64,000 nt of DNA from Flaccisagitta enflata (Eukaryota), in contig OZ231126.1 in assembly GCA_965153355.1 (NCBI GenBank), forward strand, positions 27,404,001 through 27,468,000, read 5' to 3'. Within the stretch, counting starts at the first letter, position 1; every line of letters starts with the position of its first letter. Of the stretch, positions 890 to 31,261 are shown one piece after another. The position numbers were made by a program, and so were the translations under genes. Under the pieces are notes generated by a model that made no database searches, was not told where the DNA came from, and worked only from the letters and a program-made list of their open reading frames with translations.

Positions 890-1010
890 AACAAGGCCAA
901 GTAGGCCAATAAGGTGCGACGTGTAGATCGTCGAATGAATGCGTTAACGACCGACCAACAGACCAACCGACGGACACAGCCAGTTATAGAGGTGCTTTGT
1001 CGCACCTAAA
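890..1010 (-). mobile_element. HINE/DINE-1-like short element, family B
   Basis: Inverted near-copy of 51509-51625; AGGTGCGAC subterminal inverted repeat, GTCY-type microsatellite, 3' GGCC hairpin, CTTGTT end. Confidence 0.75.
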
Positions 1011-3513
1011 AAGAACAAAGGACAAATAACAGACAAAACGACAGACAAAACGACAGACAAAAAGACACAGACAAAAGACCGAAAAAAAGACACAGAAAAA
1101 AAGACACAGAAAAAAGACGGACAGAAAAAAGACAGACAGAAAAAAGACAGACAGAAAAAAGACAGACAGAAAAAAAGGCAGACAGAAAAAAAGACAGACA
1201 GAAAAAAAGACAGACAGACAGAAAAAAGACAGACAAAAAAAAGACAGACAGAAAAAAGACAGACAGAAAAAAGACAGACAGAAAAAAGACAGACAGAAAA
1301 AAGACAGACAGAAAAAAGACAGACAGAAAAAAGACAGACAGAAAAAAAGACAGACAGAAAAAAAGAGACAGAAAAAAAGACAGACAGAAAAAAAACAGAC
1401 AGACAGAAAAAAGACAGACAGAAAAAAGACAGACAGAAAAAAGACAGACAGAAAAAAGACAGACAGAAAAAAGACAGACAGAAAAAAGACAGACAGAAAA
1501 AAAGACAGACAGAAAAAAAGACAGACAGAAAAAAAGACAGACAGAAAAAAAGACAGACAGAAAAAAAGACAGACAGAAAAAAAGACAGACAGAAAAAAAG
1601 ACAGACAGAAAAAAAGACAGACAGAAAAAAAGACAGACAGAAAAAAAGACAGACAGAAAAAAAGACAGACAGAAAAAAAGACAGACAGAAAAAAAGACAG
1701 ACAGAAAAAAACAGACAGAAAAAGACAGACAGAAAAAGACAGACAGAAAAAGACAGACAGAAAAAGACAGACAGAAAAAAGACAGACAGAAAAAGACAGA
1801 CAGAAAAAGACAGACAGAAAAAGACAGACAGAAAAAAGACAGACAGAAAAAAGACAGACAGAAAAAAGACAGACAGAAAAAAGACAGACAGAAAAAAAGA
1901 CAGACAGAAAAAAAGACAGACAGAAAAAAAGACAGACAGAAAAAAAGACAGACAGAAAAAACAGACAGAAAAAGACAGACAGAAAAAGACAGACAGAAAA
2001 AAGACAGACAGAAAGACAGACAGAAAAAAAAAGACAGACAGAAAAAAAAGACAGACAGAAAAAGACAGACAGAAAAAGACAGACAGAAAAAGACAGACAG
2101 AAAAAAGACAGACAGAAAAAAAGACAGACAGAAAAAGACAGACAGAAAAAAAGACAGACAGAAAAAGACAGACAGAAAAAGACAGACAGAAAAAGACAGA
2201 CAGAAAAAGACAGACAGAAAAAGACAGACAGAAAAAGACAGACAGAAAAAGACAGACAGAAAAAGACAGACAGAAAAAAGACAGACAGAAAAAAACACAG
2301 ACAGAAAAAAAGACAGACAGAAAAAAAGACAGACAGAAAAAAAGACAGACAGAAAAAAAGACAGACAGAAAAAAAGACAGACAGAAAAAAAGACAGACAG
2401 AAAAAAAGACAGACAGAAAAAAAGACAGACAGAAAAAAGACAGACAGAAAAAAAGACAGACAGAAAAAAAGACAGACAGAAAAAAAGACAGACAGAAAAA
2501 AAGACAGACAGAAAAAAAGACAGACAGAAAAAAAGACAGACAGAAAAAAAGACAGACAGAAAAAAAGACAGACAGAAAAAAAGACAGACAGAAAAAAAGA
2601 CAGACAGAAAAAAAGACACTGACAGACAGAAAAAAAGACACTGACAGACAGAAAAAAAGACACTGACAGACAAAAAAAAAGACACTGACAGACAAAAAAA
2701 AAGACACTGACAGACAAAAAAAAAGACACTGACAGACAAAAAAAAAGACACTGACAGACAAAAAAAAAGACACTGACAGACAAAAAAAAAGACACTGACA
2801 GACAAAAAAAAAGACACTGACAGACAAAAAAGAGACACTGACAGACAAAAAAGAGACACTGACAGACAAAAAAGAGACACTGACAGACAAAAAAGAGACA
2901 CTGACGGACGAAAAGACGCTGACAGACGGACGAAAAGACGCTGACAGACGGACGAAAAGACGCTGACAGACGGACGAAAAGACGCTGACAGACGGACGAA
3001 AAGACGCTGACAGACGGACGAAAAGACGCTGACAGACGGACGAAAAGACGCTGACAGACGGACGAAAAGACGCTGACAGACGGACGAAAAGACGCTGAGA
3101 GACGGACGAAAAGACGCTGACAGACGGACAAAAAGACGCTGAGAGACGGACGAAAAGACGCTGACTGACAGATGAAAAGACAAACCGAAATAGAGACTGA
3201 CAGATGAAAAGACAAACCGAAATAGAGACTGACAGATGAAAAGACAAACCGAAATAGAGACTGACAGATGAAAAGACAAACCAAAATAGAGACTGACAGA
3301 TGAAAAGACAAACCGAAATAGAGACTGACAGATGAAAAGACAAACCGAAATAGAGACTGACAGATGAAAAGACAAACCGAAATAGAGACTGACAGACAAA
3401 AAGACAAACCGAAATAGAGACTGACAGACAAAAAGACAAACCGAAACAGAGATGGACAGAAAAAAAGACAGACGGAAAAAAGGAAGAAAAAAAAGGGAAA
3501 AAAGACAGACGGA

Positions 3514-3593
<80 letters not shown>

Positions 3594-3595
3594 GA
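1011..3595. repeat. Compound purine-rich micro/minisatellite: GACAGACAG(A)5-8, then ~20-, 23- and 31-bp units, then (GAAA)n
   Basis: Periodicity read directly. Confidence 0.97.
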
Positions 3596-4013
3596 AAAAT
3601 TTTTTAGGTGTATCTTGTCACACCATCCTGATATCTTCAAATCCTAGGTTCTCACTCTTACATATTGGCTCAAGCAGAATTCCAATTATAACAGAATGTT
3701 TTTAGTCCCTTGAAATTGTTGGAGTGGGACTTAGCTGTAAGTTTCTAAGCTTAGAAAATTTAATACTTTTCTAGTTTTGCTCGACAAGTTATGAGAGGAG
3801 GGAGTGGTAAGGGGGGGGTCAGCAAGGGGGGAAAGTAGCTACAGGGGGGCTAGGGGGCCCCGCGCTAGCTAAGTCCGGCTCAGTGTTGCGCCTCTACCAC
3901 TGCTGCATGCTGGTACTGGTAATAGTATGGGGAAGTTAACCCCGTACCATATCTTGGTCCTCTCACAGTAACTTCCGCAATTAGATGTTCTTACACGTTC
4001 TTCTTTGCTTCAG

Positions 4014-4131
4014 TTTTCTCAACATCGTGAGCTCAAGACTGACGCTTCTCATTCGAACGCCAACGCCAAGACACAGGCGGCGCTAAAAGCGGCAAATACG
4101 CTTCTGGATAACAGAAAGGCCAATAGAACCG
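4014..4131 (+). CDS. PTBP1: PTB homologue exon, end of RRM1 and RRM1-2 linker
   Basis: FSQHRELKTDASHSNANAKTQAALKAAN resembles PTB FSNHKELKTD...AQAALQAVN; TTCAG acceptor, G|GTAAGG donor, phase 0/1. Confidence 0.92.
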
Positions 4132-4419: not shown

Positions 4420-5100
4420 CAAAAAATACTTTACCATGGACCCAATATACTTTACCATCGGCAAATTGAACCATACCGTCAGCAAAGTACTTAACCATCA
4501 GCAAAGTATACTTTGACATCGATGAACTACCACCATCAGCAAAATGTACTTTACCATTGGCAAAGTGTACTTTACCGTCGGCAAAGTGTATTTTACCATC
4601 GGCAAAGTGTACTTTACTGTGGGCAAAGTGTACTCTACCGTTGGCAAAATATTATTGTCAGCAAAGTGTACTTTACTATCGGCAAAGTGTATTTTACCAT
4701 CAGCAAAGTGTACTTTATGATCAGCAAAGTGTACTTTACCATCAGCAAAGTACTTTACCATAGGCAAAGTTTACTTTACCTTTGGCAAAATACTACCATC
4801 AGCAAAGTGTACTTTACCATCAGCAAAGTACTTTACCATCAGCAAAGTACTTTACCATCGGCAAAGTGTACTTTACCATCGGTAAAATACTACCGTCAGC
4901 AAAGTGTACTTTACCATCAGCAAAATACTACCGTCAGCAAAGTGTACTTTACCATCAGCAAAGTATATCTTACTGTCAGCAAAGTGTACTTTACCATCGG
5001 CAAAGTGTACTTTACCATCAGTAAAGTACATTACCATCGACAAAGTATACTTTATAGTTGGCAAAACATACTTTACCGAAATAGACTTTGCCTATAGCAA
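4420..5100. repeat. 19-21-bp semi-palindromic minisatellite GCAAAGTGTACTTTACCATC
   Basis: Tandem periodicity. Confidence 0.93.
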
Positions 5101-5538
5101 AGTCGATTTGGCCTTAAACAACCTAATCCCTAAACCTAAACTCAACCCAGTCCCTAAACCTAAACTCAAACCAATCCGTAAACCTAAACTCAATCTAGTC
5201 CCTAAACCTAAACTCAACCCAGTCCCTAACTTTAAACTCAACCCAGTGTCTAACCCTTAACTCAACCAAGTCCCTAACCTTAAACTCAACCTAGTCCCTA
5301 ACCCTAAACTCAAACCAGTCCTTGGCCCTATACTCAACCCAGTCCCTAACTCTAAACTCAACGCAGTCCCTAACCATAAACTCAACCCAATCCTAAATTC
5401 AACCCATTCACTTACCTAAACGGGTTAGGGTTAACCCAAACCCTAACCCTAACCTCTCCACTCCAACCCTAACCCTCAACCCTAACCCTAACCCGCAACA
5501 TATACCTCAAAAGTGAAGTCAAACCCTAACCCTAACCC

Positions 5539-5955: not shown

Positions 5956-6400
5956 CCTAACCCTAACCCTAACCCGCAACATAAACCTCCAAAGTGAAGT
6001 TAAACCCTAACCCTAACCCTAACCCGCAACATATACCTCAAAACAGAAGTCTAACCCTAACCCTAGCCCATATACCTCCAAAGTGAAGTCAAATAAGGTT
6101 AGGGTTAGGGTTTGGAGGTTAGGGTTAGGGTTTGGAGGTTAGGGTTAATGTTTCAGTAAGTGAGCGACATGCACCCGCTCATGAGCGTCGCGGGTTAAGG
6201 TTAGGGTTAGGGTTAGCGTTATAAGAAAGTATAGCACTTTTACGCCTGAGGTTAAAACCTAATCTTGAACCCAAAACTCAAACCAGTCCCAAACCTCAAC
6301 CCAGTCCCAAACCCTAAACTCAACCCAATCCCTAACCTTAAACTGAACCCAATCCCATTCACTTACCTAAACGGGTTAGGGTTAACCCAAACCCTAACCC

Positions 6401-7005: not shown

Positions 7006-7296
7006 ACCCTAACCTCTCCACTCCAACCCTAACCCTCAACCCTAACCCTAACCCGCAACATATACCTCAAAAGTGAAGTCAAACCCTAACCCTAACCCTA
7101 ACCCGCAACATAAACCTCCAAAGTGAAGTTTAACCCTAACCCTAACCCTAACCCGCAACATATACCTCAAAACAGAAGTCAAACCCTAACCCTAACCCTA
7201 ACCCTAACCCATATACCTCCAAAGTGAAGTCAAATAAGGTTAGGGTTAGGGTTTGGAGGTTAGGGTTAGGGTTTGGAGGTTAGGGTTAATGTTTCA

Positions 7297-8594: not shown

Positions 8595-9723
8595 TTCAGT
8601 AAGTGAGCGACATGCACCCGCTTATGAGCGTCGCGGGTTAAGGTTAGGGTTAGGGTTAGCGTTATAAGAAAGTATAGCACTTTTACGCCTGAGGTTAAAA
8701 CCCATTCACTTACCTTAACAGGTTAGGGTTAACCCAAACCTTAACCCTAACCCTCAACCCTATCCCTAACCTTCAACCCTAACCCTAACCCGCAACATGT
8801 ACCTCCAAAGTGAAGTCAAACCCTAACCCTAACCCTAACCCTAACCCGCAACATATACCTCCAAAGTGAAGTTTAACCCTAACCCTAACCCTAACCCGCA
8901 ACATATACCTGAAAACAGAAGTCAAACCCTAACCCAAACCCTAACCCTAACCCTAACCCTAACCCATATACCTCCAAAGTGAAGTCAAATAAGGTTAGGG
9001 TTAGGGTTTGGAGGTTAGGGTTAGGGTTTGGAGGTTAGGGTTAATGTTTCAGTAAGTGAGCGACATGCACCCGCTCATGAGCGTCACAGGTTAGGGTTAG
9101 GGTTAGAGTTAGCGTTATATGAAAGTATACCACTATTTCGCTTTCGGTTCAAACCCTAACCCTAAACTCAACCCAATCCCTAACCCTAAACTCAACCCAA
9201 TCCTTAACCCTAAATTCAACCTAGTCCCTAATCCTTAACTCAACCCAATCCCAAACCCTAAACTCAACCTTGTCTTCAACCCTTAACTCAACACACTCCC
9301 TAACCCTTAACTCAACCCAATCTCTTAGGTTATATTCAACCAAGTCCTTAACCCTTTTATTGGATTTGCACTATCCTGAGTAATCTAGGCCACCCCCCAC
9401 CCCTATGGCCACCCCCCACCCCTATGGCCACCCCCCACCTCTATGGCCACCCCCCACCCCTATGGCCACCCCCCACTTTAGTGGAAGCCACCCCTACCTT
9501 GACGGAAGCTACCCCTACCTTGACGGAAGCCACCCCTACTTTGACCAAGGCCACCCCTATCATGGCTACCCCTACCATGGCCACCCCTCTATAGAGGGGT
9601 GGCACTGTTAATTTACATTAGGAGGATGCTATAACGAACTTTAGCCGTATTTTCTCATCGCGTAGTCGCATCGTGATTCAGGGTGGCTTGCTCGAAAGAG
9701 GACTAGTTCAGATTTACGTGAGC

Positions 9724-10015: not shown

Positions 10016-10277
10016 CTCTCTATTTTACCGTCTTATTTCCCCTGATTCTGCTAATTTCCCTTCTCTCCCTCTCGCTCTCCGCTTCCATTCTCTCGTTCCA
10101 TTTCCTTCTCTTCTCTCCCTTTCCCCTTTCCGTCTCTCCCCCCTTCTATGCTCTTCCCCTGTCCCCTCTCTTCCCCTGTCCCCTCTCTTCCCCTGTCCCC
10201 TCTCTTCTCTCCCCCTCTTCATTCTCTTTCTTCTCCTTTCTCTCTTCCCTTCACTCTACCCTCTATTTTCTAATCAG

Positions 10278-10429
10278 AATATCGCGGGGATGATCGGCCG
10301 GGCCGCATTTTGCATTTGACGGTGGAGAATCTCGTTTATCCCGTGACACTGAACACGCTCATTCTGATCTTCAAGAAATATGGTCCACTGGAAAAAATCC
10401 TAACCTTCACGAGGAACAATCTATTTCAG
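10278..10429 (+). CDS. PTBP1: PTB homologue exon, RRM2 first half
   Basis: RILHLTVENLVYPVTLNTLILIFKKYGPLEKILTFTRNNLFQ; ATCAG acceptor, CAG|GTGAGA donor, phase 1/0. Confidence 0.93.
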
Positions 10430-10652
10430 GTGAGAAGTTAGTCAATGTTACGATTGGTTTGTGCGTTAGTTTACTTCGTAAAGAGTAAGTATTGGTATGT
10501 TGATCGGGTTACGCAAATATTTCATTCATTAGAACAAGCCATTTACATTGATTTGATTAAAAAAAATTAAACCATTTATAATTCTTTGATACTTGGAGCA
10601 TCGCTGGCGTAAACGACTTTATTCCTCTCCATTTTGCCAAATTCAATCATAG

Positions 10653-10798
10653 GCTTTGATTCAATACGAAAGATCTCGAGACTCGGAAGAAGCTCGTTAC
10701 GCGTTGCACGGCCAAAATATCTACAATGGTTGTTGCAATTTGCAAATTCACCGATCCAAGGTCGATTTCGTCGAAGTCCAATTTAACGACGATGTCGG
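10653..10798 (+). CDS. PTBP1: PTB homologue exon, RRM2 second half
   Basis: ALIQY...LHGQNIYNGCCNLQIHRSK contains the PTB hallmark GQNIYN.CC.L.I; phase 0/2. Confidence 0.93.
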
Positions 10799-11108
10799 GT
10801 AAAGACGAGTCGTGCGTAATCAAACTAATCATGTTTGTTGAATACCGGCTGAATCCGTCGAGCTATTCTTTTTCTTTCGGCCGTGTTAATGATTGTCCAT
10901 GTTCTATCGGCTGTCTAATCTAGCGTCTTTCTTTAAATGACCCCCGTTAAAACAAGGATGATCCCTTGTCTCGGAAAGGTGGGCTGGGGCTCCGACAGGG
11001 GCTTTTTATGTCAATTCTTTCCCGAGTGTGATGGATGAACGGACGGATCTGTTAAGTCTATTAAGTCTCATGAACGCGACTTAGATTTTTGCCCTTATTC
11101 TGTTTCAG

Positions 11109-11275
11109 ATGGGATTTCACCAAATCGAATTCGCCTTCTAGCGAGGATCGCCGATCATCTCTCTACACAAGTCGATCGGAAGAATTCGGCGACCGGTTAT
11201 CATCGGGTCAACGTAATGCGTCGAGATTTGAAGAAGATACGAGGCTGCGCGCCACGGCCGAACGTGATGGGCATG
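11109..11275 (+). CDS. PTBP1: PTB homologue exon, end of RRM2 and divergent RRM2-3 linker
   Basis: TTTCAG acceptor phase 2 gives WDFTK (PTB RDYTR position); G|GTAGGA phase-1 donor compatible with the RRM3 exon. Confidence 0.8.
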
Positions 11276-11418
11276 GTAGGAGTATGAAAATTTAATGAAG
11301 CGTATTTTTAGATGTCTCTACGCCGCGTGATGTTCAGTGAGTGTATGTCTCTTTTTCTAACCCATATCCCTTATGCTCCTCTGTCCTTCCCTCATCATTC
11401 TCGTTTTCCCCTTCAAAG

Positions 11419-11492
11419 TTCTTGAATATATCCCCGTAGAGAGTTCAGTTGACTTCAGCGGTCAAGGCGGTTTCAGTACAGATCACGCGCTG
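11419..11492 (+). CDS. PTBP1: Possible extra linker exon A (VLEYIPVESSVDFSGQGGFSTDHAL)
   Basis: Pyrimidine tract plus AAAG acceptor in phase 1, open frame; donor at 11493 (phase 0) or 11498 (phase 2), each matched by an acceptor of the next exon. Confidence 0.45.
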
Positions 11493-11617
11493 GTGCGGTG
11501 AATCAGATGAAAAAGAATTTTATGTTTGATCAATGATCACTTTTCCGTTTTAAGACTTGTTTTCTCCGACGGTTAATAAATAATCTTATTTCATCTGATT
11601 CCGCTAAACCCGCACAG

Positions 11618-11759
11618 TATAACAGAATGAAAAAGCCAGATCGTCCACTTTACGAACCGCCAAAGGGGAAATTCCATGAAAACCTGACCTCTGATTTTCA
11701 CAAGCCATCCTCCAACCAACTTCTTCGAGGCATTTTAAAGGGTGAAGGTTTATGGCTGC
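11618..11759 (+). CDS. PTBP1: Possible extra linker exon B (YNRMKKPDRPLYEPPKGKFHENLTSDFHKPSSNQLLRGILKGEGLWL)
   Basis: CTAAAC...CACAG acceptor (alternative AACAG at 11625); four phase-1 donors (11742, 11748, 11760 GTGAGT, 11778 GTATGG) all fit the RRM3 exon; exact end uncertain. Confidence 0.5.
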
Positions 11760-11833
11760 GTGAGTCGCTGAAAGTAGGTATGGTTGGCCACTAGCAAAGT
11801 CTTTTTTTTTTTTTGTATTCTTTTATTTAGTTA

Positions 11834-12881
11834 CAGGGGAAGGAGAAATATAAGATGTGAACCCCCCTAAAACTGTAGCACCCCCCCATACAGCTCAAAC
11901 TACGGCAATGAATAATAAATTTAAAGTTGCTTATTAAAGTTTATGACTATACAAGTGGCGCCACACACGCCAAGGGAGAAATCTCTGCAGGCTGTATTAA
12001 ATACTCGGTTTTAATGGCCACTGCTTCTGAGATCAGAGAGACTCCCTCTTATCTTTTTCCATTTGAAATTAAAGAAATGCCCTTCAAAATTTGTTTAAAT
12101 TCAACAAAATATAGTTCTTTAAGAATGTTTTTCGCCAAGGATCTTTCCACTTAAAAGATTTGTATGTTTTGAGTAGAGATTCACATTCCTGGTAAAATTT
12201 CCAGTCGTTTGATAGGTCGCACTATATACTTATACTCATAAAAAAAATTGGCCAATTTTCTTAAAACATAAGATATCAACATTACTATTATAACAACCAA
12301 CAGTAATGTAGGGCAAACTTGAACTTTTTTGTCTCTTAGTAAAAGTATATAGTGCGACCTATCAAATGAATGGAAATTTTACAAGGAATACAATTCTTTT
12401 ACAAAAAATTAAAATGGGTAACCACGATTCAACTTATCTGGCAAAATGTATAAGATATGAAACATTTTGTTGATTTAAAAAGAATTTTGAAGGAGAATTT
12501 TTTTCTCTTTAGTACCAAGTGATAGAATAGACCTTCCTGAAACCCATACCACTCATCGTCATGACCGAGCATTTTTCTTGACCTATGAAAGCCTCCCCCG
12601 TAGCGTGCACAAGAGCGATTTTGCAAATTTCATTCCAGTCTCAAATTATACTGGAAAATCCTTGATTTTATGAACTTATAATAATAGTTAATTTCAATAC
12701 TTTATTAAGCTATATCTTGACTTAAAAAACAAAAATGAAAAATCGCTCTGGTGACGCCACTTGTATTAATATAAACATTTTCCCTCCACTTATAGAATAA
12801 CTATAATTTAATCGGTTAGAGCTGCAGGTGGGGGTGCTACAGTTTTCAGGGGGTTCACATCTTATATTTCTCCTTCCTCTG
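11834..12881. mobile_element. Tc1/mariner-type MITE, 1048 bp
   Basis: TIR over 50 bp CAG(G/A)GGAAGGAGAAATATAAGATGTGAACCCCC..., TA on both flanks; shorter copy at 54648-55047. Confidence 0.88.
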
Positions 12882-12984
12882 TACTTGGTTCCATAAGGTT
12901 TTTTTCCTGGGGCTCTAGCAAAGGCTTGTTCGTCTTTTTCAGCAAATCGTCTAAAAAGTCAAAACTATGATGGAGTGCAAAGAA

Positions 12985-13182
12985 AAGCTGATGAAAAGAT
13001 TGGAGGAAAGCTTGAAAAGAACAAAAATGGAAAGCTTGAAAAGGGCAAAAATGGTAAGCTTGAGAAAGGAAAACCTGGAAAGCTTGAGAGAGGAAAACCT
13101 GCAAAGCTTGAGAGAGGAAAACCTGCAAAGCTTGAGAGAGGAAAACCTGCAAAGCTTGAGAGAGGAAAACCTGCAAAGCTTA
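12985..13182. repeat. 24-bp minisatellite AAAGCTTGAGAGAGGAAAACCTGC
   Basis: Tandem periodicity. Confidence 0.9.
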
Positions 13183-13479
13183 GTACAGGTGTGGAGACCA
13201 GTTTTTACAGCGTTTCATAGTCGTGTATTTTCAGCTTTCCAGAAGTTATTGTTTTGTTTCTGTTAGTTTTACTTCATCAACCATTCTACCTTCCAATCTT
13301 GATTTCTGTTGACCCTAATACTTTTTGCTGGGATTCCCCTATCAGTAAACAATATTTCCTGTATACATTTCTTCTCTTCTCCTTTCCTCCCTCCCCCTCA
13401 CGAGTTTAGGCCTAAAAGAGCACCACAACTTTTATAACGAAAGCTAATTTCTTCCCCGTCACTCTTATTCCTCCTTAAG

Positions 13480-13728
13480 GATCCGTTTTGCTGGTATCGA
13501 ATCTGGAGGAATCGAAAACGACGCCGGACAAACTGTTTACTTTATTCGGCGTTTACGGCGACGTCACCCGCGTCAAGATTCTCTTCAATAAAAAGGACAC
13601 GGCGTTAATTCAGTTCGCCGACGCTCACATGGCCGACACAGCCAGGCAGCATCTGGACAAAGTCACCGTCGCTGGCAAAGCCATCAGCGTCAGAAGCTCC
13701 AAACATTCGACTGTTTCTATGCCCAAAG
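13480..13728 (+). CDS. PTBP1: PTB homologue exon, entire RRM3
   Basis: SVLLVSNL...TPDKLFTLFGVYGDVTRVKILFNKKDTALIQFAD...SKHSTVSMPK, very close to PTB RRM3; phase 1/1. Confidence 0.96.
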
Positions 13729-14549
13729 GTGAGAGGTTTTGAGGTGTGTTAAACTATGACTCATTTGACCAGTTACCTCTCTTTGATAAGTTTTTACAAT
13801 TTTTATCTCCTGCGCGTCGACAATGATCGGAATGAAACACAAGAAAATCATAATCGAATGTGTTATGAGTTTTTGAAGATCCGTATTGTTAAGTGACACA
13901 GGGTTGATTGTCCGAGATAAAGCGAATGTTTGTAGCCCTGATGTCATTACCTTCGGGAATAATCTAAAACCCATTATAACTACATCTTACGTTTAAGGTT
14001 TTTGTACTAATAGCAACCATTTATTTGGACCCCTGGGTCTGTGTTGGTTGCTATATATTATATTATATCATATCTTGCCGTTTTCAGAAGAAACCAAACT
14101 TTTTCGACATAACCGGAGGATTTTCTAATGAGTCTAATGACTAATGACGTCTAATGACTGCCCGGTCATTAGAGTCATTAGAGTCATTAGACTCATTAGA
14201 GTCATTAGAGTCATTAGAGTCATTAGTCATTAGAGGTCATAAGAAGTCATTAGAAGTCTCTAATGACTCATGAGTCTAATGAGTCTAATGAGTCTAATGA
14301 CTCTAATGAGTCTAATGACTCTAATGAGTCTAATGACTCTAATGACTCGGTCCGTAGAGTGAAAAGTCTCTAAAAAATCTTGTCAAATGGTAAAAAGGTC
14401 TTTTATGACCAAAGAAAATTTGGGCTGGAGAAAAAGTCTTGTCCCAAAAGAGGGTAAAAAATGGCTCTTTCAAGACCAATGACTGCAATATGCAAATGAG
14501 ATTATTGGACACTTTTTAATGTCTTTAAGTTCAAGGGATTTTATAAATA

Positions 14550-14757
14550 AACAAGTGACGCGGGGTCACAATATCGTTGCGGACGGGTGGGCAGGGGCAT
14601 CCAACCCCCTTCCACACCCATGCTCATCCCCAAAAAGTATCAAAAACGCTTGTTTTCCCGCTATTCAACTCGATGACCACGGACCATCGGACGGACGGAC
14701 CAACGGACGGACGGACGGACAAAGCCTCTTATAGAGTTGCGTGTCCGCAACTAAAAA
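14550..14757 (-). mobile_element. HINE-like element, family C, inserted in an A-run of a satellite unit
   Basis: AGTTGCGGAC subterminal inverted repeat, (GACG)n core; relatives at 56068-56270 and 56453-56656. Confidence 0.75.
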
Positions 14758-17700
14758 CAAGGGGGCTAGGGTGGTGGGTGGGTTAAGGCAGTCATTAGAA
14801 AAAAAAGTCTTGTTGAATATAAGGATATGGTTGGGGCTATAAAGGCAGGGGTTTTAAAGGGGGATTTTATTTTTTCTAATGACTAATGACTCATGGTCTG
14901 TAAAGTGAAAAGTCTTTAAAAAGTCTTGTCAAAAGGCAAAAAGGTCTTTTTTGACCAAGGAAAAGTTGGGCTGAAGAAAGTCTTGTCCCAAAAAAAGTTT
15001 AAAAATGGGTCTTTTGAGTCGATTGACTGCAATATGCAAATGAGATTATTGGACACTTTTCAATGTCTTTAAGTTCAAGGGATTTTATAAATAAAAAACA
15101 AGGGGGCTAGGGTGGTGGGTGGGTTAAGGCAGTCATTAGAAAAAAAAGTCTTGTTGAATATAAGGATATGGTTGGGGCTATAAAGGAAGGGGTTTTTAAG
15201 GGGGATTTTTTTTCTTCTAATGACTAATGACTATAATGACTCATGGTCTGTAAAGTGAAAAGTCTTTAAAAAGTCTTGTCAAAAATTAAAAACGTTTTTT
15301 TTGACCAAGGAAAATTTGGGCTGGGGAAAAAGTCTTGTCCCAAAAGAAGGTAAAAAATGGCTCTTTCAGGACCAATGACTCATGGTCTGTAAAGTGAAAA
15401 GTCTTTAGAAAGTCTAGTCAAAAGGCTAAAGGTCTTTTTTGACCAAAGAAAAGTTGGGCTGGAAAAAAAGTCTTGTCCCAAAAAAGTTTAAAAATGGGTC
15501 TTTTGGGTCGAATGACTGCAATATGCAAATGAGATTATTGGACACTTTTCAATGTCTTTAAGTTCAAGGGATTTTATAAATAAAAAACAAGGGGGCTAGG
15601 GTGGTGGGTGGGTTAAGGCAGTCATTAGAAAAAAAAGTCTTGTTGAATATAAGGATATGGTTGGGGCTATAAAGGCAGGGGTTTTTAAGGGGGATTTTTT
15701 TCTTCTAATGACTAATGACTCTAATGACTCTAATGACTCTAATGACTCTAATGACTCTAATGACTCATGGTCTGTAAAGTGAAAAGTCTTTAAAAAGGTC
15801 TTTTTTGACCAAGGAAAAGTTGGGCTGTAGAAAAAGTCTTGTCCCAAAAAAAGTTTAAAAATGGGACTTTTGGGTCAAATGACTGCAATATGCAAATGAG
15901 TTTATTGGACATTTTTCAATGTCTTTAAGTTCAAGGGATTTTATAAATAAAAAACAAGGGGGCTAGGGTGGTGGGTAGGTTAAGGCAGTCATTAGAAAAA
16001 AAAGTCTTGTTGAATATAAGGATATGGTTGGGGCTATAAAGGCAGGGGTTTTAAAGGGGGATTTTATTTTTTCTAATGACTAATGACTAATGACTCATGG
16101 TCTGTAAAGTGAAAAGTCTTTAAAAAGTCTTGTCAAAAGGCAAAAAGGTCTTTTTTGACCAAGGAAAAGTTGGGCTGAAGAAAGTCTTGTCCCAAAAAAA
16201 GTTTAAGAATGGGTCTTTTGAGTCGAATGACTGCAATATGCAAATGAGATTATTGGACACTTTTCAATGTCTTTAAGTTCAAGGGATTTTATAAATAAAA
16301 AACAAGGGGGCTAGGGTGGTGGGTGGGTTAAGGCAGTCATTAGAAAAAAAAGTCTTGTTGAATATAAGGATATGGTTGGGGCTATAAAGGAAGGGGTTTT
16401 TAAGGGGGATTTTTTTTCTTCTAATGACTCTAATGACTATAATGACTCATGGTCTGTAAAGTGAAAAGTCTTTAAAAAGTCTTGTCAAAAATTAAAAACG
16501 TTTTTTTTGACCAAGGAAAATTTGGGCTGGGGAAAAAGTCTTGTCCCAAAAGAAGGTAAAAAATGGCTCTTTCAGGACCAATGACTCATGGTCTGTAAAG
16601 TGAAAAGTCTTTAAAAAGTCTTGTCAAAAGGCGAAAAGGTCTTTTTTGACCAAAGAGAAGTTGGGCTGGAAAAAAAGTCTTGCCCCAAAAAGTTTAAAAA
16701 TGGGTCTTTTGGGTCGAATGACTGCAATATGCAAATGAGATTATTGGACACTTTTCAATGTCTTTAAGTTCAAGGGATTTTATAAATAAAAAACAAGGGG
16801 GCTAGGGTGGTGGGTGGGTTAAGGCAGCCATTAGAAAAAAAAGTCTTGTTGAATATAAGGATATGGTTGGGGCTATAAAGGCAGGGGTTTTAAAGGGGGA
16901 TTTTATTTTTTCTAATGACTAATGACTAATGACTCATGGTCTGTAAAGTGAAAAGTCTTTAAAAAGTCTTGTCAAAAATTAAAAACGTTTTTTTTGACCA
17001 AGGAAAATTTGGGCTGGGGAAAAAGTCTTGTCCCAAAAGAAGGTAAAAAATGGCTCTTTCAGGACCAATGACTCATGGTCTGTAAAGTGAAAAGTCTTTA
17101 AAAAGTCTTGTCAAAAGGCTAAAGGTCTTTTTTGACCAAAGAAAAGTTGGGCTGGAAAAAAAGTCTTGTCCCAAAAAAGTTTAAAAATGGGTCTTTTGGG
17201 TCGAATGACTGCAATATGCAAATGAGATTATTGGACACTTTTCAATGTCTTTAAGTTCAAGGGATTTTATAAATAAAAAACAAGGGGGCTAGGGTGGTGG
17301 GTGGGTTAAGGCAGTCATTAGAAAAAAAAGTCTTGTTGAATATAAGGATATGGTTGGGGCTATAAAGGCAGGGGTTTTTAAGGGGGATTTTTTTCTTCTA
17401 ATGACTAATGACTCTAATGACTCTAATGACTCTAATGACTCTAATGACTCTAATGACTCTAATGACTCTAATGACTCATGGTCTGTAAAGTGAAAAGTCT
17501 TTAAAAAGGTCTTTTTTGACCAAGGAAAAGTTGGGCTGTAGAAAAAGTCTTGTCCCAAAAAAAGTTTAAAAATGGGACTTTTGGGTCAAATGACTGCAAT
17601 ATGCAAATGAGATTATTGGACATTTTTCAATGTCTTTAAGTTCAAGGGATTTTATAAATAAAAAACAAGGGGGCTAGGGTGGTGGGTGGGTTAAGGCAGT

Positions 17701-20700
17701 CATTAGAAAAAAAAGTCTTGTTGAATATAAGGATATGGTTGGGGCTATAAAGGCAGGGGTTTTTAAGGGGGATTTTTTTCTTCTAATGACTCTCTAATGA
17801 CTCTAATGACTCTAATGACTCTAATGACTCTAATGACTCTAATGACTCATGGTCTGTAAAGTGAAAAGTCTTTAAAAAGTCTTGTCAAAAGGCAAAAAGG
17901 TCTTTTTTGACCAAGGAAAAGTTGGGCTGGAGAAAAAGTCTTGTCCCAAAAAAAGTTTAAAAATGGGTCTTTTGGGTCAAATGACTGCAATATGCAAATG
18001 AGATTATTGGACACTTTTCAATGTCTTTAAGTTCAAGGGATTTTATAAATAAAAAACAAGGGGGCTAGGGTGGTGGGTGGGTTAAGGCAGTCATTAGAAA
18101 AAAAAGTCTTGTTGAATATAAGGATATGGTTGGGGCTATAAAGGCAGGGGTTTTAAAGGGGGATTTTATTTTTTCTAATGACTCTAATGACTCTAATGAC
18201 TCATGGTCTGTAAAGTGAAAAGTCTTTAAAAAGTCTTGTCAAAAGGCAAAAAGGTCTTTTTTGACCAAGGAAAAGTTGGGCTGGAGAAAAAGTCTTGTCC
18301 CAAAAAAAGTTTAAAAATGGGTCTTTTGGGTCGAATGACTGCAATATGCAAATGAGATTATTGGACACTTTTCAATGTCTTTAAGTTCAAGGGATTTTAT
18401 AAATAAAAAACAAGGGGGCTAGGGTGGTGGGTGGGTTAAGGCAGTCATTAGAAAAAAAAAGTCTTGTTGAATATAAGGATATGGTTGGGGCTATAAAGGC
18501 AGGGGTTTTAAAGGGGGATTTTATTTTTTCTAATGACTAATGACTCTAATGACTCGTGGTCTGTAAAGTGAAAAGTCTTTAAAAAGTCTTGTCAAAAGTT
18601 AAAAAGGTCTTTTTTGACCAAGGAAAATTTGGGCTGGAGAAAAAGTCTTGTCCCAAAAGAAGGTAAAAAATGGCTCTTTTGGGACCAAATGACTCATGGT
18701 CTGTAAAGTGAAAAGTCTTTAAAATGTCTTGTCAAAAGGCAAAAAGGTCTTATTTGACCAAAGAAAGTTGGGCTGGAGAAAAAGTCTTGTCCCAAAAAAA
18801 GTTTAAAAATGGGTCTTTTGGGTCAAATGACTGCAATATGCAAATGAGATTATTGGACACTTTTCAATGTCTTTAAGTTCAAGGGATTTTATAAATAAAA
18901 AACAAGGGGGCTAGGGTGGTGGGTGGGTTAAGGCAGTCATTAGAAAAAAAAGTCTTGTTGAGTATAAGGATATGGTTGGGGCTATAAAGGCAGGGGTTTG
19001 AAAGGGGGATTTTATTTTTTTCTAATGACTCTAATGACTCTAATGACTCATGGTCTGTAAAGTGAAAAGTCTTTAAAAAGTCTTGTCAAAAGGCAAAAAG
19101 GTCTTTTTTTGACCAAAGAAAAGTTGGGCTGGAGAAAAAGTCTTGTCCCAAAAAAAGTATTAAAAAGGGTCTTTTGGGTCAAATGACTGCAATATGCAAA
19201 TGAGATTATTGGACACTTTTCAATGTCTTTAAGTTGAAGGGATTTTATAAATAAAAAACAAGGGGGCTAGGGTGGTGGGTGGGTTAAGGTAGTCATTAGA
19301 AAAAAAAAAGTCTTGTTGAATATAAGGATATGGTTGGGGCTATAAAGGCAGGGGTTTTAAAGGGGGATTTTATTTTTTCTAATGACTCTAATGACTCTAA
19401 TGACTCGTGGTCTGTAAAGTGAAAAGTCTTTAAAAAGTCTTGTCAAAAGTTAAAAAGGTTTTTTTTGACCAAGGAAAATTTGGGCTGGGGAAAAAGTCTT
19501 GTCCCAAAAGAAGGTAAAAAATGGCTCTTTTGGGACCAATGACTCATGGTCTGTAAAGTGAAAAGTCTTTAAAAAGTCTTGTCAAAAGGCAAAAAGGTCT
19601 TTTTTGACCAAAGAAAAGTTGGGCTGGAAAAAAAGTCTTGTCCCAAAAAAAGTTTAAAAATGGGTCTTTTGGGTCGAATGACTGCAATATGCAAATGAGA
19701 TTATTGGACACTTTTCAATGTCTTTAAGTTCAAGGGATTTTATAAATAAAAAACAAGGGGGCTAGGGTGGTGGGTGGGTTAAGGCAGTCATTAGAAAAAA
19801 AAAGTCTTGTTGAATATAAGGATATGGTTGGGGCTATAAAGGCAGGGGTATTAAAGGGGGATTTTATTTTCTCTAATGACTCCAATGACTCTCATGACTC
19901 ATGGTCTGTAAAGTGAAAAGTCTTTAAAAAGTCTTGTCAAAAGTTAAAAAGGTCTTTTTTGACCAAGGAAAATTTGGGCTGGAGAAAAAGTCTTGTCCCA
20001 AAAGAAGGTAAAAAATGGCTCTTTTGGGACCAATGACTCATGGTCTGTAAAGTGAAAAGTCTTTAAAAAGTCTTGTCAAAAGGCAAAAAGGTCTTTTTTG
20101 ACCAAAGAAAAGTTGGGCTGGAGAAAAAGTCTTGTCCCAAAAAAAGTTTAAAAATGGGTCTTTTGGGTCAAATGACTGCAATATGCAAATGAGATTATTG
20201 GACACTTTTCAATGTCTTTAAGTTCAAGGGATTTTATAAAAAAAAAACAAGGGGGCTAGGGTGGTGGGTGGGTTAAGGCAGTCATTAGAAAAAAAAGTCT
20301 TGTTGAATATAAGGATATGGTTGGGGCTATAAAGGCAGGGGTTTTAATGGGGGATTTTATTTTTTCTAATGACTCTAATGACTCGTGGTCTGTAAAGCAA
20401 AAAGTCTTTAAAAAGTCTTGTCAAAAGTTAAAAACGTTTTTTTTGACCAAAGAAAGGTTGGGCTGGGAAAAAAGTCTTGTCCCAAAAAAGTTTAAAAATG
20501 GGTCTTTTGGGTCGAATGACTGCAATATGCAAATGAGATTATTGGACACTTTTCAATGTTTTTAAGTTCAAGGGATTTTATAAATAAAAAACAAGGGGGC
20601 TAGGGTGGTAGGTGGGTTAAGGCAGTCATTAGAAGAAAAAAAAGTCTTGTTGAATATAAGGATATGGTTGGGGCTATAAAGGCAGGGGATTTAAAGGGGG

Positions 20701-21113
20701 ATTTTATTTTCTCTAATGACTCGTGGTCTGAAAAGTGAAAAGTCTTTAAAAAGTCTTGTCAAAAGTTAAAAAGGTCTTTTTTGACCAAGGAAAATTTGGG
20801 CTGGAGAAAAAGTCTTGTCCCAAAAGAAAGTAAAAAATGGCTCTTTTGGGACCAATGACTCATGGTCTGTAAAGTGAAAAGTCTTTAAAAAGTCTTGTCA
20901 AAAGGCAAAAAGGTCTTTTTTGACCGAAGAAAAGTTGGGCTGGAGAAAAAGTCTTGTCCCAAAAAAAGTTTAAAAATGGGTCTTTTGGGTCAAATGACTG
21001 CAATATGCAAATGAGATTATTGGACACTTTTCAATGTCTTTAAGTTCAAGGAATCTTATAAATAAAAAACAAGGGGGCTAGGGTGGTGGGTGGGTTAAGG
21101 CAGTCATTAGAAA

Positions 21114-21367
21114 AACAAGGACAACCCATTACAGTCGCGTGCGGTTGTTAAGACAATTTGACTAAAAGACAAAAGGACCAAAAGCCTAAGAGACTAAATG
21201 TTAATTGACTAAATGTAAATTAACATAAATTAACTTTAAATAACTAAAAATGACTTTAAATGGCGTCAAACGTCGAAAAAAAGCTAAAAAAAGCTAAGTG
21301 GGACCAACCGACAGACGGACCGACAGACGGACAGAGTGGGTCAGAGTTGCGTGCACGCGACTAAAAA
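21114..21367 (-). mobile_element. HINE-like element inserted in an A-run of a satellite unit
   Basis: AGTCGCGTGC inverted repeat, GAC(C/G/A) microsatellite; relative at 63374-63577; empty sites in sister units. Confidence 0.78.
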
Positions 21368-22649
21368 GTCTTGTTGAATATAAGGATATGGTTGGGGCTA
21401 TAAAGGCAGGGGTTTTAAAGGGGGATTTTATTTTTTCTAATGACTCTAATGACTCTAATAACTCGTGGTCTGTAAAGTGAAAAGTCTTTAAAAAGTCTTG
21501 TCAAAAGGTAAAAAGGTCTTTTTTGGTCAAAGAAAAGTTGGGCTGGAGAAAAAGTCTTGTCCCAAAAAAAGTTTAAAAATGGGTCTTTTGGGTCGAATGA
21601 CTGCAATATGCAAATGAGATTATTGGACACTTTTCAATGTCTTTAAGTTCAAGGGATTTTATAAATAAAAAACAAGGGGGCTAGGGTGGTGGGTGGGTTA
21701 AGGCAGTCATTAGAAAAAAAAAAGTCTTGTTGAATATAAGGATATGGTTGGGGCTATAAAGGCAGGGGTTTTAAAGGGGGATTTTATTTTTTCTAACGAC
21801 TCTAATGACTCTAATGACTCATGGTCTGTAAAGTGAAAAGTCTTTAAAAAGTCTTGTCAAAAGGCAAAAAGGTCTTATTTGACCAAAGAAAAGTTGGGCT
21901 GGAGAAAAAGTCTTGTCCCAAAAAAAGTTTAAAAATGGGTCTTTTGGGTCGAATGACTGCAATATGCAAATGAGATTATTAGACACTTTTCAATGTCTTT
22001 AAGCTCAAGGGATTTCATAAAAAAAAACCAAGGGAGCTAGGGTGGTGGGTGGGTTAAGGCATTAGAAAAAAAAGTCTTGTTGAACATAAGGATATGGTTG
22101 GGGCTATAAAGGCAGGGGTTTTTAAGGGGGATTTTATTTTTCTTATGACCTGTAATGACTAACGACTTCTAATGACTCATGGGCTGTAGCAAGAAAAATC
22201 ACCACATGTGATCCCTATAAGAGAAAGCTTCATTTTAAAAAAAAGCATGTCCCTATGATGTACAGCAAAACTAATTTGGAATTTTTTTTTATTCTAGCTT
22301 CTCCACCCATTGCCCCAACCACCCACCCCCACTGCCCCACCTCATGCGATCCCTATAAAGGAAAGCTTTTCTAAAGGATTGTGCTACTTTTGAATATATG
22401 CATTCCCTTATAATGACTACATGCGGTAGGGTGGTGGGTGGGTGGGGTGGTGGCTGTACTTTGTCAGGTCACACTTGTTTTGAAAAGCAGCTTTCCCTTT
22501 TAAGAACCGCATACGGTGGGGCGGTGGGTGGGTGGGGCAGTGGCTGTACCCCTTAGGGTCGCGCTCCTTTTGAAAAGAACCTTTCCCTTTAATGGATCGC
22601 CTGCGATGGGATGGTGGTTCTGAAGTTTGCAAAAACATCGCCTTCATCA

Positions 22650-23910
22650 AAATTGAGAAACTTTTCCTTTGGCACAAGTTGAGAAACTTAGCTTTCTAAG
22701 TTGAGAAACTTTGCCTTTGGCAAAGTTGAGAAACTTTGCCTTTGGCAAAGTTGGAAAACATTACCTTCGGCAAAGTTAAGAAACATTGCCTTCGGCAAAG
22801 TTGAGAGACTTTGCTTTTAGCAAAGTTGAGAGACTATGCCTTTGGCAAAGTTAAGAAACTTTGCCTTTGGCAAAGTTAAAGAACTCTAAACGCAACCCAG
22901 TCCCTAACCCTAAACTCAACCCAGTTCCTCACCCTAAACTCAACCCAGTTCCTAAACCTAAACTCAACCCAGTTCCTAACCCTAAACTCCACCCAGTCCC
23001 TAACCCTTAACTCAACCCAGTCACTAACCCTTAACCAGTCCCTAAACCTAAGCTCAAACCAGTCCCTAACCCTCAACTCAACCCAGTCCCTAACCCTAAA
23101 CTCAACCCAGACCCTAACCCTAAACTCAACCCAGTCCCTAACCCTAAATTCAACCAGTCCCTAACCCTAAATTCAACCAGTCCCTAAGCCTAAACTCAAC
23201 CAGTCCCTAACCCTAAACTCAAACCAGTTCCCAACTCTTGACTCAAACCAGTTTCTAACCCTAAACTCAACCCAGTCACTAACCCTTAACTCAATCCAGT
23301 CCCTGACCCAAAACTCAACCCAGACCCTAAACTCAAACCAGTCCCTAACCCTAAACTCAACCCAGACCCCAACCCTAAACTCAACCCAGACCCTAACCCT
23401 AAACTCAACCCAGTCCCTAACCCTAAACTAAACCCAGTTCCTAACCCTAAACTCAACTCAGTTCCTAACCCTAAATTCAACTCAGTTCCTAACCCTAAAT
23501 TCAACTCAGTCCCTAACCTTAAACTCAACCAGTCCCTAACCCTAAACTCAACCAGTCCCTAACCCTAAACTCAAACCCGTCCCTAACCCTAAAGTCAAAC
23601 CAGTTGCTAAGCCTAAATTCAACCCAGTTGCTAAGCCTAAATTCAACCCAGTTGCTAAGCCTAAATTCAACCCAGTTGCTAAGCCTAAATTCAACCCAGT
23701 TGCCAACCCTAAATTCAACCCAGTTGCTAACCCTAAATTCAAGCCAGTTTTTAACCCTAAACCCAACCCATTCCCTAACCCTGAACTCAACCCAGTCCCT
23801 AACCTTAAATACAATCCAGTCCTTATTCCTAAACTCAATCCAATCCTTATTGCCAAACTCAATCCAGTCCCTAACCCTAACTTCAACCAAGACCCTAACC
23901 CTACACCAGA
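22650..23910. repeat. 25-bp array GGCAAAGTTGAGAAACTTTGCCTTT followed by 24-bp CCCTAA-derived array (left arm)
   Basis: Periodicity read directly. Confidence 0.92.
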
Positions 23911-24148
23911 CCTCTTGATTATGATTATCTTCCGAGCAGCAGGATTTTTATACTAAATTCTTCCGACAGACCCTTTTTACTATTACTAAATAAAAAGTTA
24001 CAATAAATCGGGGTTTCAGCACTCAAAAATATTTTCAGATTCATCTTTGAATCTGTTTAAAAGGATGCGATGGTAGTTGGATGGGAGATATCTTTTTTTT
24101 AAAGATTTTGAAAATTTCTATTTCATGGTTTTAAGAGAAGAAATGCCC

Positions 24149-25444: not shown

Positions 25445-27745
25445 TTAGGGTTAAGGATTTTGTCTAGTTAAGGGTGGGGGATTGGGTTGAGTGAAGGGAC
25501 TGGGCTGAGTTTAGGGCTAGGGACGAGGTTGAGTTTAGGGTGAGGGACTGGGTTGAGTTTAAAATTAGGGACTGGGTTGAGTTTAGGGTTAGGGACTGGG
25601 TTGAGTTTAGGGTTAGGGACTGGGTTGAGTTTAGGGTTAGGGACTGGGTTGAGTTTAGGTTAGGACTGAGTTTAGGTAGGGACCCAAGGAGTTTAGGGCT
25701 AGGGACGAGGTTGAGTTTAGGGTTAGGGACTGGGCTGAGTTTAGGTTAGTGGACTGGGTGAGGGGTGAGGGACTGGGGTTGAGTTTAGGGTTAGGGACTG
25801 GGCTGAGTTTAGGGTTAGGGACTGGGTTGAGTTTAGGGTTAGGGACTGGGTTGAGTTTAGGGTTAGGGACTGGGTTGAGTTTAGGGTTAGGGACTGGGTT
25901 GAGTTTAGGGTTAGGGACTGGGTTGAGTTTAGGGTTAGGGACTGGGTTGAGTGTAGGGTTAGGGACTGGGTTGAGTGTAGGGTTAGGGACTGGGTTGAGT
26001 TTAGGGTTAGGGACTGGGTTGAGTTTAGGGTTAGGGACTGGGTTGAGTTTAGGGTTAGGGACTGGGTTGAGTTTAGGGTTAGGGACTGGGTTGAGTTTAG
26101 GGTTAGGGACTGGGTTGAGTTTAGGGTTAGGGACTGGGTTGAGTTTAGGGTTAGGGACTGGGTTGAGTTTAGGGTTAGGGACTGGGTTGAGTTTAGGGTT
26201 AGGGACTGGGTTGAGTTTAGGGTTAGGGACTGGGTTGAGTTTAGGGTTAGGGACTGGGTTGAGTTTAGTGAAAGGACTGGGCTGAGTTTAGGGTTAGGGA
26301 CTGGGACTTGAGCTTCTAGGGTTAGGACTGGATTGAGTTTAGGGTTGGGGACTGATTGAGCTAGGGTTAGGGACTGGGCTGAGTTTAGGTTAGGGACTGG
26401 GTTGAGTTTAGGTTAGTGACTGGGTTGAGTTTAGGGTTAGTGACTGTCCAGTTTAGGTAAGGGACTGGGCGGGAGTTTAGGGTATGGGACTGGGCTGAGT
26501 TTAGGGTTAGGGACTGCGTGGAGTTTAGGTTAGGGACTGGGTTGAGTTTAGGTTATGGACTGGGTTGAGTGTAGGTTAGGGGACTGCTGAGTGTAGGGTT
26601 AGGGACTGCTGAGGTTAGGGACTGGGTGTGAGTGTAGGGTTAGGGACTGGGTTGAGTGTAGGGGTTAGGACCAAGTTGGAGTGCAGGGCTAGGGGACTGG
26701 GTTGAGTTAAGGTTAGGACTGCTGAGTTTGGCTAGGGACTGGGTTGAGTTTAGGGCTAGGGACTGGGTTGAGCTGTGTTTAGGGACTGGGCTGAGCTTTA
26801 GGTTAGGGACTGGGGCTGAGTTTGAGGTTAGGGACTGGGGGCTGAGTTTAGGTTAGGGACTGGGCTGGGAGCTTCTAGGTTAGGACTGCTGAGTTTAAAG
26901 GTAGGACAAGGGTTGAGTTTAGGTTAGGGACTGGGTTGAGTTTAGGGGTAAGGGACTGGGTTGAGTTTGGTTTAGGGACTGGGTTGAGTTTAGGTTAGGG
27001 ACTGGGCTGAGCTTTAGGGTTAGGACTGGGTTGAGTTTAGGTTAGGACTGCTGAGCTAGTTGGGACTGCTGATGAGGTTAGGGTGCTTGGGCTCTGGGAC
27101 TGAGTTTAGGTTTAGGACTGGGTTGAGTTTAGGGTTGGGACTGCTGAGTTTAGGGTTAGGGACTGGCTGATTTGAGGTTGGGGACTGGGTTGAATTTAGG
27201 TTAGGGACTGGAGCTGAGTTTAGGTTAGGACTGGGCTGGAGTTTGGTAGGTAGTTTAGGTGACTGCTGAGTTTAGGTTAGGGACTGGGTTGAGTTCAGGT
27301 TGGGACTGGGTTGAGTTTGGGGTTAGGGACTGCTGAGTTTAGGTTAACAACTGTTGAGTTTAGGCCAGGGACTGGCTGAGCTTAGGTTTGGGACCATTGA
27401 GTTTGGGGTTAGGGACTGGGTTGAGTTTAGGGTTAGGGACTGGGTTGAGTTTAGGGTTAGGGACTGGGTTGAGTTTAGGGTTAGGGACTAAGTTGAGTTA
27501 AGGGTTAGGGAATGGGCAAAGTTTCTCAATTTTGTCAACGGCAAAGTTTCTCAATTTTTTATGGCAAATTTTCTCAGGCAAAATTTCTCGACTTTGCATA
27601 GGCATAGGCAATGTTTCTTGACTTTGCCATAGGCAAAGTTTCTCAACTTTGCCGTAGGCAAAGTTTTTCAACTTTGCCGTAGGCAAAGTTTCTCATTTTT
27701 GCCGTAGGCAAAGTTTCTCAACTTTGCCATAGTTTCTCAACTGGC
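25445..27745. repeat. 24-bp array GGGTTAGGGACTGGGTTGAGTTTA then 25-bp array (right arm, inverted relative to 22650-23910)
   Basis: Reverse-complement units in mirrored order. Confidence 0.92.
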
Positions 27746-30883: not shown

Positions 30884-31070
30884 AGGAAAGTGCGCCGGAA
30901 AACTCCATACTAACCAAAGATTACACCAATTCTCCGTTACATCGTTACAAGAAGGCCGGATCGAAGAACTGCGGCAACATTTTCAAGCCCAGCTCCACTC
31001 TTCATCTCTCCAACATCGCCGATGGCGTCACTGAAGATGAACTAGTCCGACCGTTCAAACAATATGGAGA
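30884..31070 (+). CDS. PTBP1: PTB homologue exon, RRM3-4 linker and start of RRM4
   Basis: [42 protein letters not shown] acceptor, GA|GTAAGT donor, phase 1/2. Confidence 0.95.
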
Positions 31071-31261
31071 GTAAGTGTGCAAACTTCTATTGTTGTTAAA
31101 ACTATGGTTTTGAATTTGACGAGTACAAAAAAATAACTGCAGTGTGCAAAGGAGGATTTCATTCACCGATACAAGAAACGAAACTCTAACGTTTTAAGGA
31201 GTGCAGTGTGAAATTAGCACTGCGGCGGAGAGTTAGGTGAACTCTTAGCTGAAATGGTCCT

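Follow-up and report, generated by a model that had tools for sequence, protein, structure and literature searches.

Introduction

Does the linker between RRM2 and RRM3 of a PTB splicing repressor carry, in an optional exon, a peptide with which the protein could dock on the exon junction complex (EJC)? The question is raised by a stretch of 64,000 nucleotides, analysed here as a whole and called the window, in which a preliminary description had placed a candidate exon at 11618..11777 and likened part of its translation to the EJC-binding motif (EBM) of UPF3 and SMG6. The EBM of UPF3B is described as binding a contiguous surface formed by EIF4A3, MAGOH and RBM8A (PMC9108619; PMC9162471), and SMG6 as having two EBMs and competing with UPF3B (PMC9162471). 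An Arg-to-Ala difference at position 423 has been suggested to explain why UPF3A binds more weakly (PMC9108626). Several further putative EBM proteins have been reported (PMC7355637), and R3HCC1L is, in the words of a preprint, only predicted to co-localise with the EJC. In the sections of the literature that treat peripheral binding to the EJC, such binding is structurally understood for UPF3B only, and the few proteins that carry an EBM are mostly NMD factors (PMC7355637, PMC9162471).

The peptide at issue here is KKPDRPLYEPP, encoded at 11630..11662 on the + strand and matching the pattern [KR][KR]P[DE]..[LIVM]Y.P. Whether it belongs to a real exon, whether it is conserved, and how far an EJC-binding role accounts for that conservation are taken in turn below.

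Results

The host gene and its surroundings

The window holds a PTB/hnRNP-I gene with four RRMs on the + strand, extending from about 298 to beyond 31829. Exon-sized open frames on this strand correspond to RRM1 (about 298-450 and 646-747), an inter-RRM linker (about 3990-4130), RRM2 (10277-10427 and 10651-10797) and RRM4 (about 30895-31071 and 31695-31829). The constitutive linker exon f (11109..11275, +; WDFTKSNSPSS...TAERDGH) is the last exon 5' of the optional block described below, and the RRM3 exon g (13480..13728, +; GSVLLVSNL...) follows that block.

A database protein of the same species, P0004 (501 aa), maps to the window exons, exon f among them, and its best pieces are 98-100% identical to them. 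It reads ...TAERDGH/GSVLLVSNL..., that is, exon f straight onto RRM3, and its first 25 residues are encoded upstream of the window. Two further proteins, P0002 (496 aa) and P0003 (617 aa), lie on contigs of 2.3 and 2.5 kb, and on account of these lengths are regarded as intron-less transcripts of one relative. Both belong to the PTB family by their matches to Pfam RRM_5 (4e-46), RRM_1, RRM_8 and RRM_occluded, and the precomputed Pfam list of P0004 names the same RRM families.

Much of the surrounding sequence is repetitive. Two long arrays, visible as repeating ORF fragments, lie inside PTB introns: one at ~990-3640 is simple and purine/pyrimidine-skewed, with KKDRQ-like frames, and the other, a satellite of repeating units (KVSNNLICILQSFDPKDPFLNFF... 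frames) at ~14100-22200, fills much of the RRM3-RRM4 intron. Microsatellite-like arrays encoding LNPVPNPK and GLGTGLSL on opposite strands are found at ~5090-5420, 6250-6400, 7050-7280 and 8785-9380, with more at ~22850-23960, 25650-26410 and 28020-28915. Further along, long open frames occur on the + strand at 48226-50502 (758 aa) and 50586-51485 (299 aa), and Pro/Gly/Gln-rich open frames on the - strand at 52640-55555. A Pfam search at E up to 0.01 assigned no family to the four long ORFs at 48226-55555 or to the ORF at 33789-34118; the frames at 48226-55555 probably belong to other genes, as exons coding for low-complexity proteins.

Exon B is a cassette exon

Exon B (11618..11777, +) comprises 160 nt, or 53 codons and one base, in the RRM2-RRM3 linker. 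It is preceded by an AG at 11616-17 with a weak pyrimidine tract, is read in phase 0 from 11618 with no stop, and translates as YNRMKKPDRPLYEPPKGKFHENLTSDFHKPSSNQLLRGILKGEGLWLRESLKV. In-frame GT donors are present at 11742, 11760 and 11778.

Contigs of three marine metatranscriptome runs (Logan), X1 and X3 from study P1 and X2 from study P2, were aligned to positions 10250-13760. Depth was zero in the intron bins and present in the exons, and the contigs therefore represent spliced RNA. In all three runs contigs span 10797>11109 and then end or branch at 11275, the end of exon f. The joint 11275>11419, which leads into a further optional exon A, is found in X1 and X3 with GT..AG borders, and one of its sides is only 29 letters long, as is to be expected where an assembly graph branches; the skipping joint has the same 29 letters in these two runs. 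Exon B is entered through 11492>11618 in two of the three runs (X1 and X3) and left through 11777>12943 in all three, with GT..AG borders in both cases. Raw reads of run X7 over 10250-13760 numbered 0, which carries no weight either way.

The acceptor and distal donor (11777) of the in-phase exon put forward in the preliminary description are thus borne out by spliced contigs, as are the junctions 11275-11419 and 11492-11618 that it had proposed, both of them present in X1 and X3. Its remaining junction, from 11759 or 11777 to 13480, is found in no contig: 11777 is joined to exon C at 12943, and the donor at 11759 is unused.

Skipping is seen as well, with the joint 11275>13480 in all three runs. 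The skipping set (word depth 52.7-61.5, 13.1 and 11.3-11.8) joins 10427>10651, 10797>11109 and 11275>13480, and in X2 all four exons joined in this way lie on a single contig of 1588 nt; P0004 is this form at the protein level. Skipping contigs are deeper than inclusion contigs (word depth 61.5, 13.1 and 11.8 vs 11.2, 5.2 and 6.2 in the three runs), contig depth being a poor gauge of isoform ratio. Since inclusion and skipping joints are both found in spliced RNA, exon B is a cassette exon of the PTB RRM2-RRM3 linker, which the earlier reading had considered probable. Its inclusion contigs come from three runs of two studies, and it is confirmed as real, in-frame and alternatively included.

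The lower depth of the inclusion isoform and the weak acceptor are what might be seen if exon B were tolerated splicing noise, or a recent exonisation with no function of its own. Its recurrence across the three runs and two studies speaks against this, and the comparison with the relative, given below, bears on it more directly.

Exons A and C and the coupling of frames

Exon B is accompanied by two other optional exons. Exon A (11419..11492, +; 74 nt) reads (V)LEYIPVESSVDFSGQGGFSTDHAL and is bounded by the joints 11275>11419 and 11492>11618 of X1 and X3. When stops were counted for each combination of exons, the frame was closed by A alone, B alone, A+C and B+C, and open with none of the three, with C, with A+B and with A+B+C. 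Exons A and B therefore form a frame-coupled pair, since only the two together, with or without C, stay open.

Exon C (12943..13188, +) is Lys-rich (ANRLKSQ...GKLEKGKP/GKPAKLER repeats). Its 5' end is observed; its 3' end is placed at 13188 by the GT at 13189 and the reading frame, because the contigs break off in a tandem repeat. They reach 13045-13101, and depth goes on into the bin 13082-13199. The repeat itself, at 13005-13181, consists of 7.4 copies of a 24-nt unit and gives rise to the Lys-rich octapeptides GKLEKGKP and GKPAKLER. The counterpart of exon C in the relative is a short Lys-rich insert, present in P0003 only. A protein search with exon C scored 8000 candidates and returned 0 at E up to 1. 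In a Pfam scan at E up to 10, exons A and B matched 0 families, and a match of exon C to PriS_C at 0.27 was put down to chance.

The B-C intron contains a foldback/MITE-like element of ~1.05 kb (11832..12883, no strand assigned), non-coding for PTB, with 69-nt terminal inverted repeats that are 90% complementary and with nested inverted repeats. The ends of the element have high depth in X2 and loose ends into unrelated sequence, which suggests that other transcribed copies exist.

The size and composition of the block raise the possibility that it acts in cis, with the length or charge of the linker altering RNA affinity, or the spacing of RRM1-2 from RRM3-4 and looping. Vertebrate PTBP1 linker isoforms differ in repressor strength, and the block sits at the same protein location as the vertebrate exon 9 cassette. 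Together A, B and C lengthen the linker by 160 residues; the start of exon B is basic, and exon C, Lys-rich in both species, poorly conserved and built on a 24-nt repeat, fits a contribution of bulk charge. Such a role leaves unexplained why 32 of 41 positions in exon B are near-invariant beside a linker that is 34% identical, and an AlphaFold2 model has no contact between this part of exon B and an RRM, weak evidence given the shallow alignment there. On balance we regard a role in cis as unlikely.

A conserved module in exon B

The exon B peptide reads KKPDRPLYEPPKGKFHENL..DFHKPSS..LLRGILK, and its counterpart in P0002 and P0003, the two transcripts known from the relative, both of which include exon B, reads ...RSRKPDRPIYQPPKGKFHENLATDFHKPSSKLLLRGILK. 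Comparison with these proteins delimits a conserved module, N-R-..-KPDRP.Y.PPKGKFHENL..DFHKPSS..LLRGILK, at 11621..11740 (+), which is 78% identical over 41 residues with 32 invariant columns. Identity to P0003 is 34% in the constitutive exon f, 67-88% in the RRM exons and 78% in the RRM3 exon g. The residues K-P-D-R-P-x-Y-x-P-P are all invariant between the window and the relative. Conservation of the Pro, Tyr and Pro had been named as a check on the peptide; in the sole relative known with the exon these residues, and the flanking basic residues, are invariant.

Beyond the module P0002 continues as G-SVVLVSNL, and P0003 as a short Lys-rich insert followed by GSVV. The relative thus ends the exon at GILK/G-SVV and GILK/A-HKK, a place homologous to the in-frame GT donor that follows GILK-G at 11742..11743 (+) in the window and that no contig uses. 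Among the differences between contigs and window, the sole one in exon B is synonymous (three runs). In the RRM exons 9 of 10 differences are synonymous, vs 1 of 4 for exon f and 2 of 6 for exon C, where the other four change the residue.

Outside this pair of species the module was sought widely. When 5.8 billion proteins were searched through a word index with the exon B peptide, 21 candidates emerged, three of which carry it: P0002, P0003 and P0001, the last an unspliced gene call identical to the window. With phmmer, run exhaustively against 1.84 billion representatives, only P0001 and P0002 were returned at E up to 0.001. A scan of JGI metagenome contigs with an exon B profile produced 326 pattern matches, 0 of them confirmed, and the ESM Atlas gave no usable match to exon B. 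The pattern [KR][KR]P[DE]..[LIVM]Y.P occurs in 3 of 121 proteins (68,564 residues), again P0001 to P0003, and in 0 of the 118 other PTB proteins, which were the best of 1022 PTB-family matches to the RRM3 exon. In an alignment of 119 proteins, from which P0001 and the fragment P0055 were left out, the other PTB linkers are Ala/Gly/Met/Pro-rich and unlike the module.

The preliminary description knew of no such motif in PTB proteins, and this agrees both with its absence from the 118 others and with the titles and opening lines of abstracts on PTB (including PTBP1), the EJC, EBMs, direct interaction and MAGOH, in which no PTB EBM was found. Because it is missing from those 118 PTBs and from the rest of the 1.84 billion representatives (E up to 0.001), the motif is not a general PTB property, and in these searches it is limited to one small clade.

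A FastTree phylogeny over 467 well-filled columns recovered this clade as ((P0003,P0002),(P0004,(P0009,P0005))) with support 1.0. Beyond a sister group of this clade, the bdelloid rotifer PTBs sit in the next clade out and are the nearest named PTBs in the tree; ranked by RRM3 identity, molluscs come first at 70-72%. The four lineages of the clade (P0004, P0005, P0009 and P0002-3) are known only from marine metatranscriptome-type contigs. Since exon B occurs in both branches that part at the deepest split of the clade, the ancestor of the clade probably had it; P0005 and P0009, as skipped forms, are uninformative on exon B, and one lineage besides that of the window carries the exon in the databases.

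These comparisons return us to splicing noise. Restriction to one small clade would be in keeping with a functionless exon. Against this, the frame is kept, the sequence has been preserved far better than the constitutive linker between the two branches of the clade's deepest split, and both known transcripts of the relative include the exon. In view of this conservation, neutral noise or functionless exonisation is very improbable, and the natural reading of the module is a regulated docking peptide.

Likeness to EJC-binding motifs

The peptide was set against the motifs of UPF3B and SMG6. In these EBMs position -6 is basic, -5 is Pro and -1 is aliphatic; Tyr stands at 0, with Pro at +2 and Gly at +3. 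The PTB peptide has Lys, Pro, Leu or Ile, Tyr, Pro and Pro at these places and thus fits the pattern at five of six; at +3 both species have Pro in place of Gly. The pattern has a chance of 2.6e-8 per position, or 0.26 expected occurrences per ten million residues, a figure subject to a look-elsewhere effect as the finding was picked because of the motif match.

That the core of exon B is an EBM docking on the EJC is the best single hypothesis, and one that we hold tentatively, at rather less than even confidence. The EJC core is the sole specific partner with any positive indication, and the nature of the host protein makes it a plausible one. A feature that counts against the EBM reading is that conservation continues for 27 residues after the core (PPKGKFHENL..DFHKPSS..LLRGILK), more than an EBM requires, which points to an interface that is larger or of another kind. 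The Pro at +3 and the limitation of the motif to one small clade weigh against it too.

The module might accordingly dock on another partner, such as an import or export factor, a co-repressor, a kinase or an SH2/SH3-type reader of P-x-x-P-x-Y-x-P-P, with the EBM likeness a coincidence. The conserved block of ~38 residues greatly exceeds an EBM core in length, the invariance of its second half (KGKFHENL..DFHKPSS..LLRGILK) equals that of its first, and the module is predicted to be disordered; moreover, no database evidence ties it to EJC ligands. PDB sequence searches (E up to 10), one with the exon and one with a profile of two sequences, returned no UPF3B, CASC3 or other EJC-ligand chain, search negatives that carry little weight for an 11-residue motif, and their best likenesses, non-significant, were to unrelated proteins. 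Weighing the other way, no search yielded a candidate for this other partner, the match to the EBM pattern is specific and rare by chance, and the host is an mRNP protein, in which an EJC handle makes functional sense. We consider docking on a different partner possible, if somewhat doubtful.

Several specific candidates were tried and set aside. The two PDB likenesses were yeast TFIIE-beta (5fmf_S/5fyw_X; 34 residues spanning the whole module, E 0.09-1) and the C-terminal tail of API5 (3u0r_A/6l4o_A; E 0.8-0.84, covering the Y-x-P-P-x-G-K-aromatic part), both non-significant and probably due to chance. The SELOR of CASC3/Barentsz (Pfam Btz, PF09405) is the segment with which this fourth protein of the EJC core binds eIF4A3, and P-x-Y-x-P-x-K-G-x-F-x-E of exon B resembles a conserved SELOR stretch; no Btz match came up for exon B, P0002 or P0003 in Pfam at E up to 10. 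The PRI motifs of Raver1 and Matrin-3, which are ligands of PTB RRM2, have a core of [S/G][I/L]LG. The GILK that ends the module is superficially similar, but has Lys for the defining Gly, no Pro after it and no docking on RRM2 in AlphaFold2, and was rejected by eye. Also judged by eye, a UHM-ligand Trp motif in GLWLRE, class I/II SH3 sites, a classical NLS and an eIF4E-binding motif were dropped, as none fits its consensus.

Predicted structure of the linker

P0003 was modelled with AlphaFold2 from a 119-row alignment. The four RRMs are confidently predicted, and the mean pLDDT is 73.3. The linker, residues 256-417, has no secondary structure and a pLDDT below 50 except at 305, 324, 335, 343 and 365-371. 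The alignment is without depth in this linker region, and the model is thus weak evidence there; for the same reason little weight attaches to the finding that the module docks on no RRM. Within residues 344-417 only 365-371, the homologue of the core (KPDRPIY), does not fall below 50. The exon B module is thus predicted to be disordered, and the pLDDT profile, as weak evidence, resembles what a short linear motif within a disordered linker would be expected to give.

Discussion

The analysis began from a short peptide that resembled an EBM and leads to an optional exon that is real and spliced, and to a module within it that is strongly conserved in one relative. How the core would act, if it is an EBM, can be set out as a model. 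The first 11 residues of the module, KKPDRPLYEPP, would act in the manner of the UPF3B and SMG6 motifs, with the basic residue, the Pro, the aliphatic-Tyr pair and the second Pro sitting on the composite eIF4A3-MAGOH-Y14 surface. The inclusion isoform of PTB would then be held on spliced, EJC-bearing mRNAs, and would compete with UPF3 and SMG6 for one site, a competition that we propose because those two compete with each other. The skipped and deeper isoform would be without the handle, so that splicing of A+B would switch the link on or off. In its full form, in which inclusion of A+B docks PTB in the UPF3/SMG6 site, so that PTB-bound, spliced mRNAs are either shielded from EJC-dependent decay or directed into it, the model is a doubtful one.

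The PTB peptide resembles the EBMs of UPF3B, UPF3A and SMG6 in its short basic-Pro-x3-aliphatic-Tyr-x-Pro form, in a region predicted to be disordered, in a protein of mRNA metabolism. As in UPF3B, a basic residue is kept at the place of Arg423 (Lys in the PTB peptide), and as in other EBMs the sequence is conserved between species. It departs from UPF3B and SMG6 in that its host is a PTB splicing repressor and not an NMD factor, in that it lies in an optional exon and inside a 38-residue conserved block, and in having Pro in place of the Gly after Tyr-x-Pro.

A second comparison is with the exon 9 isoforms of vertebrate PTBP1 (PTB1, PTB2 and PTB4), which likewise arise from a cassette in the RRM2-RRM3 linker and exist with and without the extra residues. 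The two are unrelated in sequence (in 114 other PTBs the linker is Ala/Gly/Met/Pro-rich), and in contrast to exon 9 the present block has three exons, with A and B coupled in frame and B carrying a highly conserved motif. A cassette in this linker is thus a known vertebrate theme; what is new here is the three exons, the unrelated sequence and the conserved EBM-like peptide.

Should EJC binding fail, exon B would still encode a conserved, regulated linker module of a major RNA-binding protein. PTB is known to shield mRNAs from NMD through RNA binding, and is not known to do so through the EJC; a conserved EBM-like peptide, subject to alternative splicing in PTB, would link a splicing repressor physically and directly to the EJC. 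If this holds, PTB would be the first splicing regulator with an EBM, and the EBM the first under the control of alternative splicing; it would also be an example of a lineage-specific cassette exon through which a protein has gained a short linear motif.
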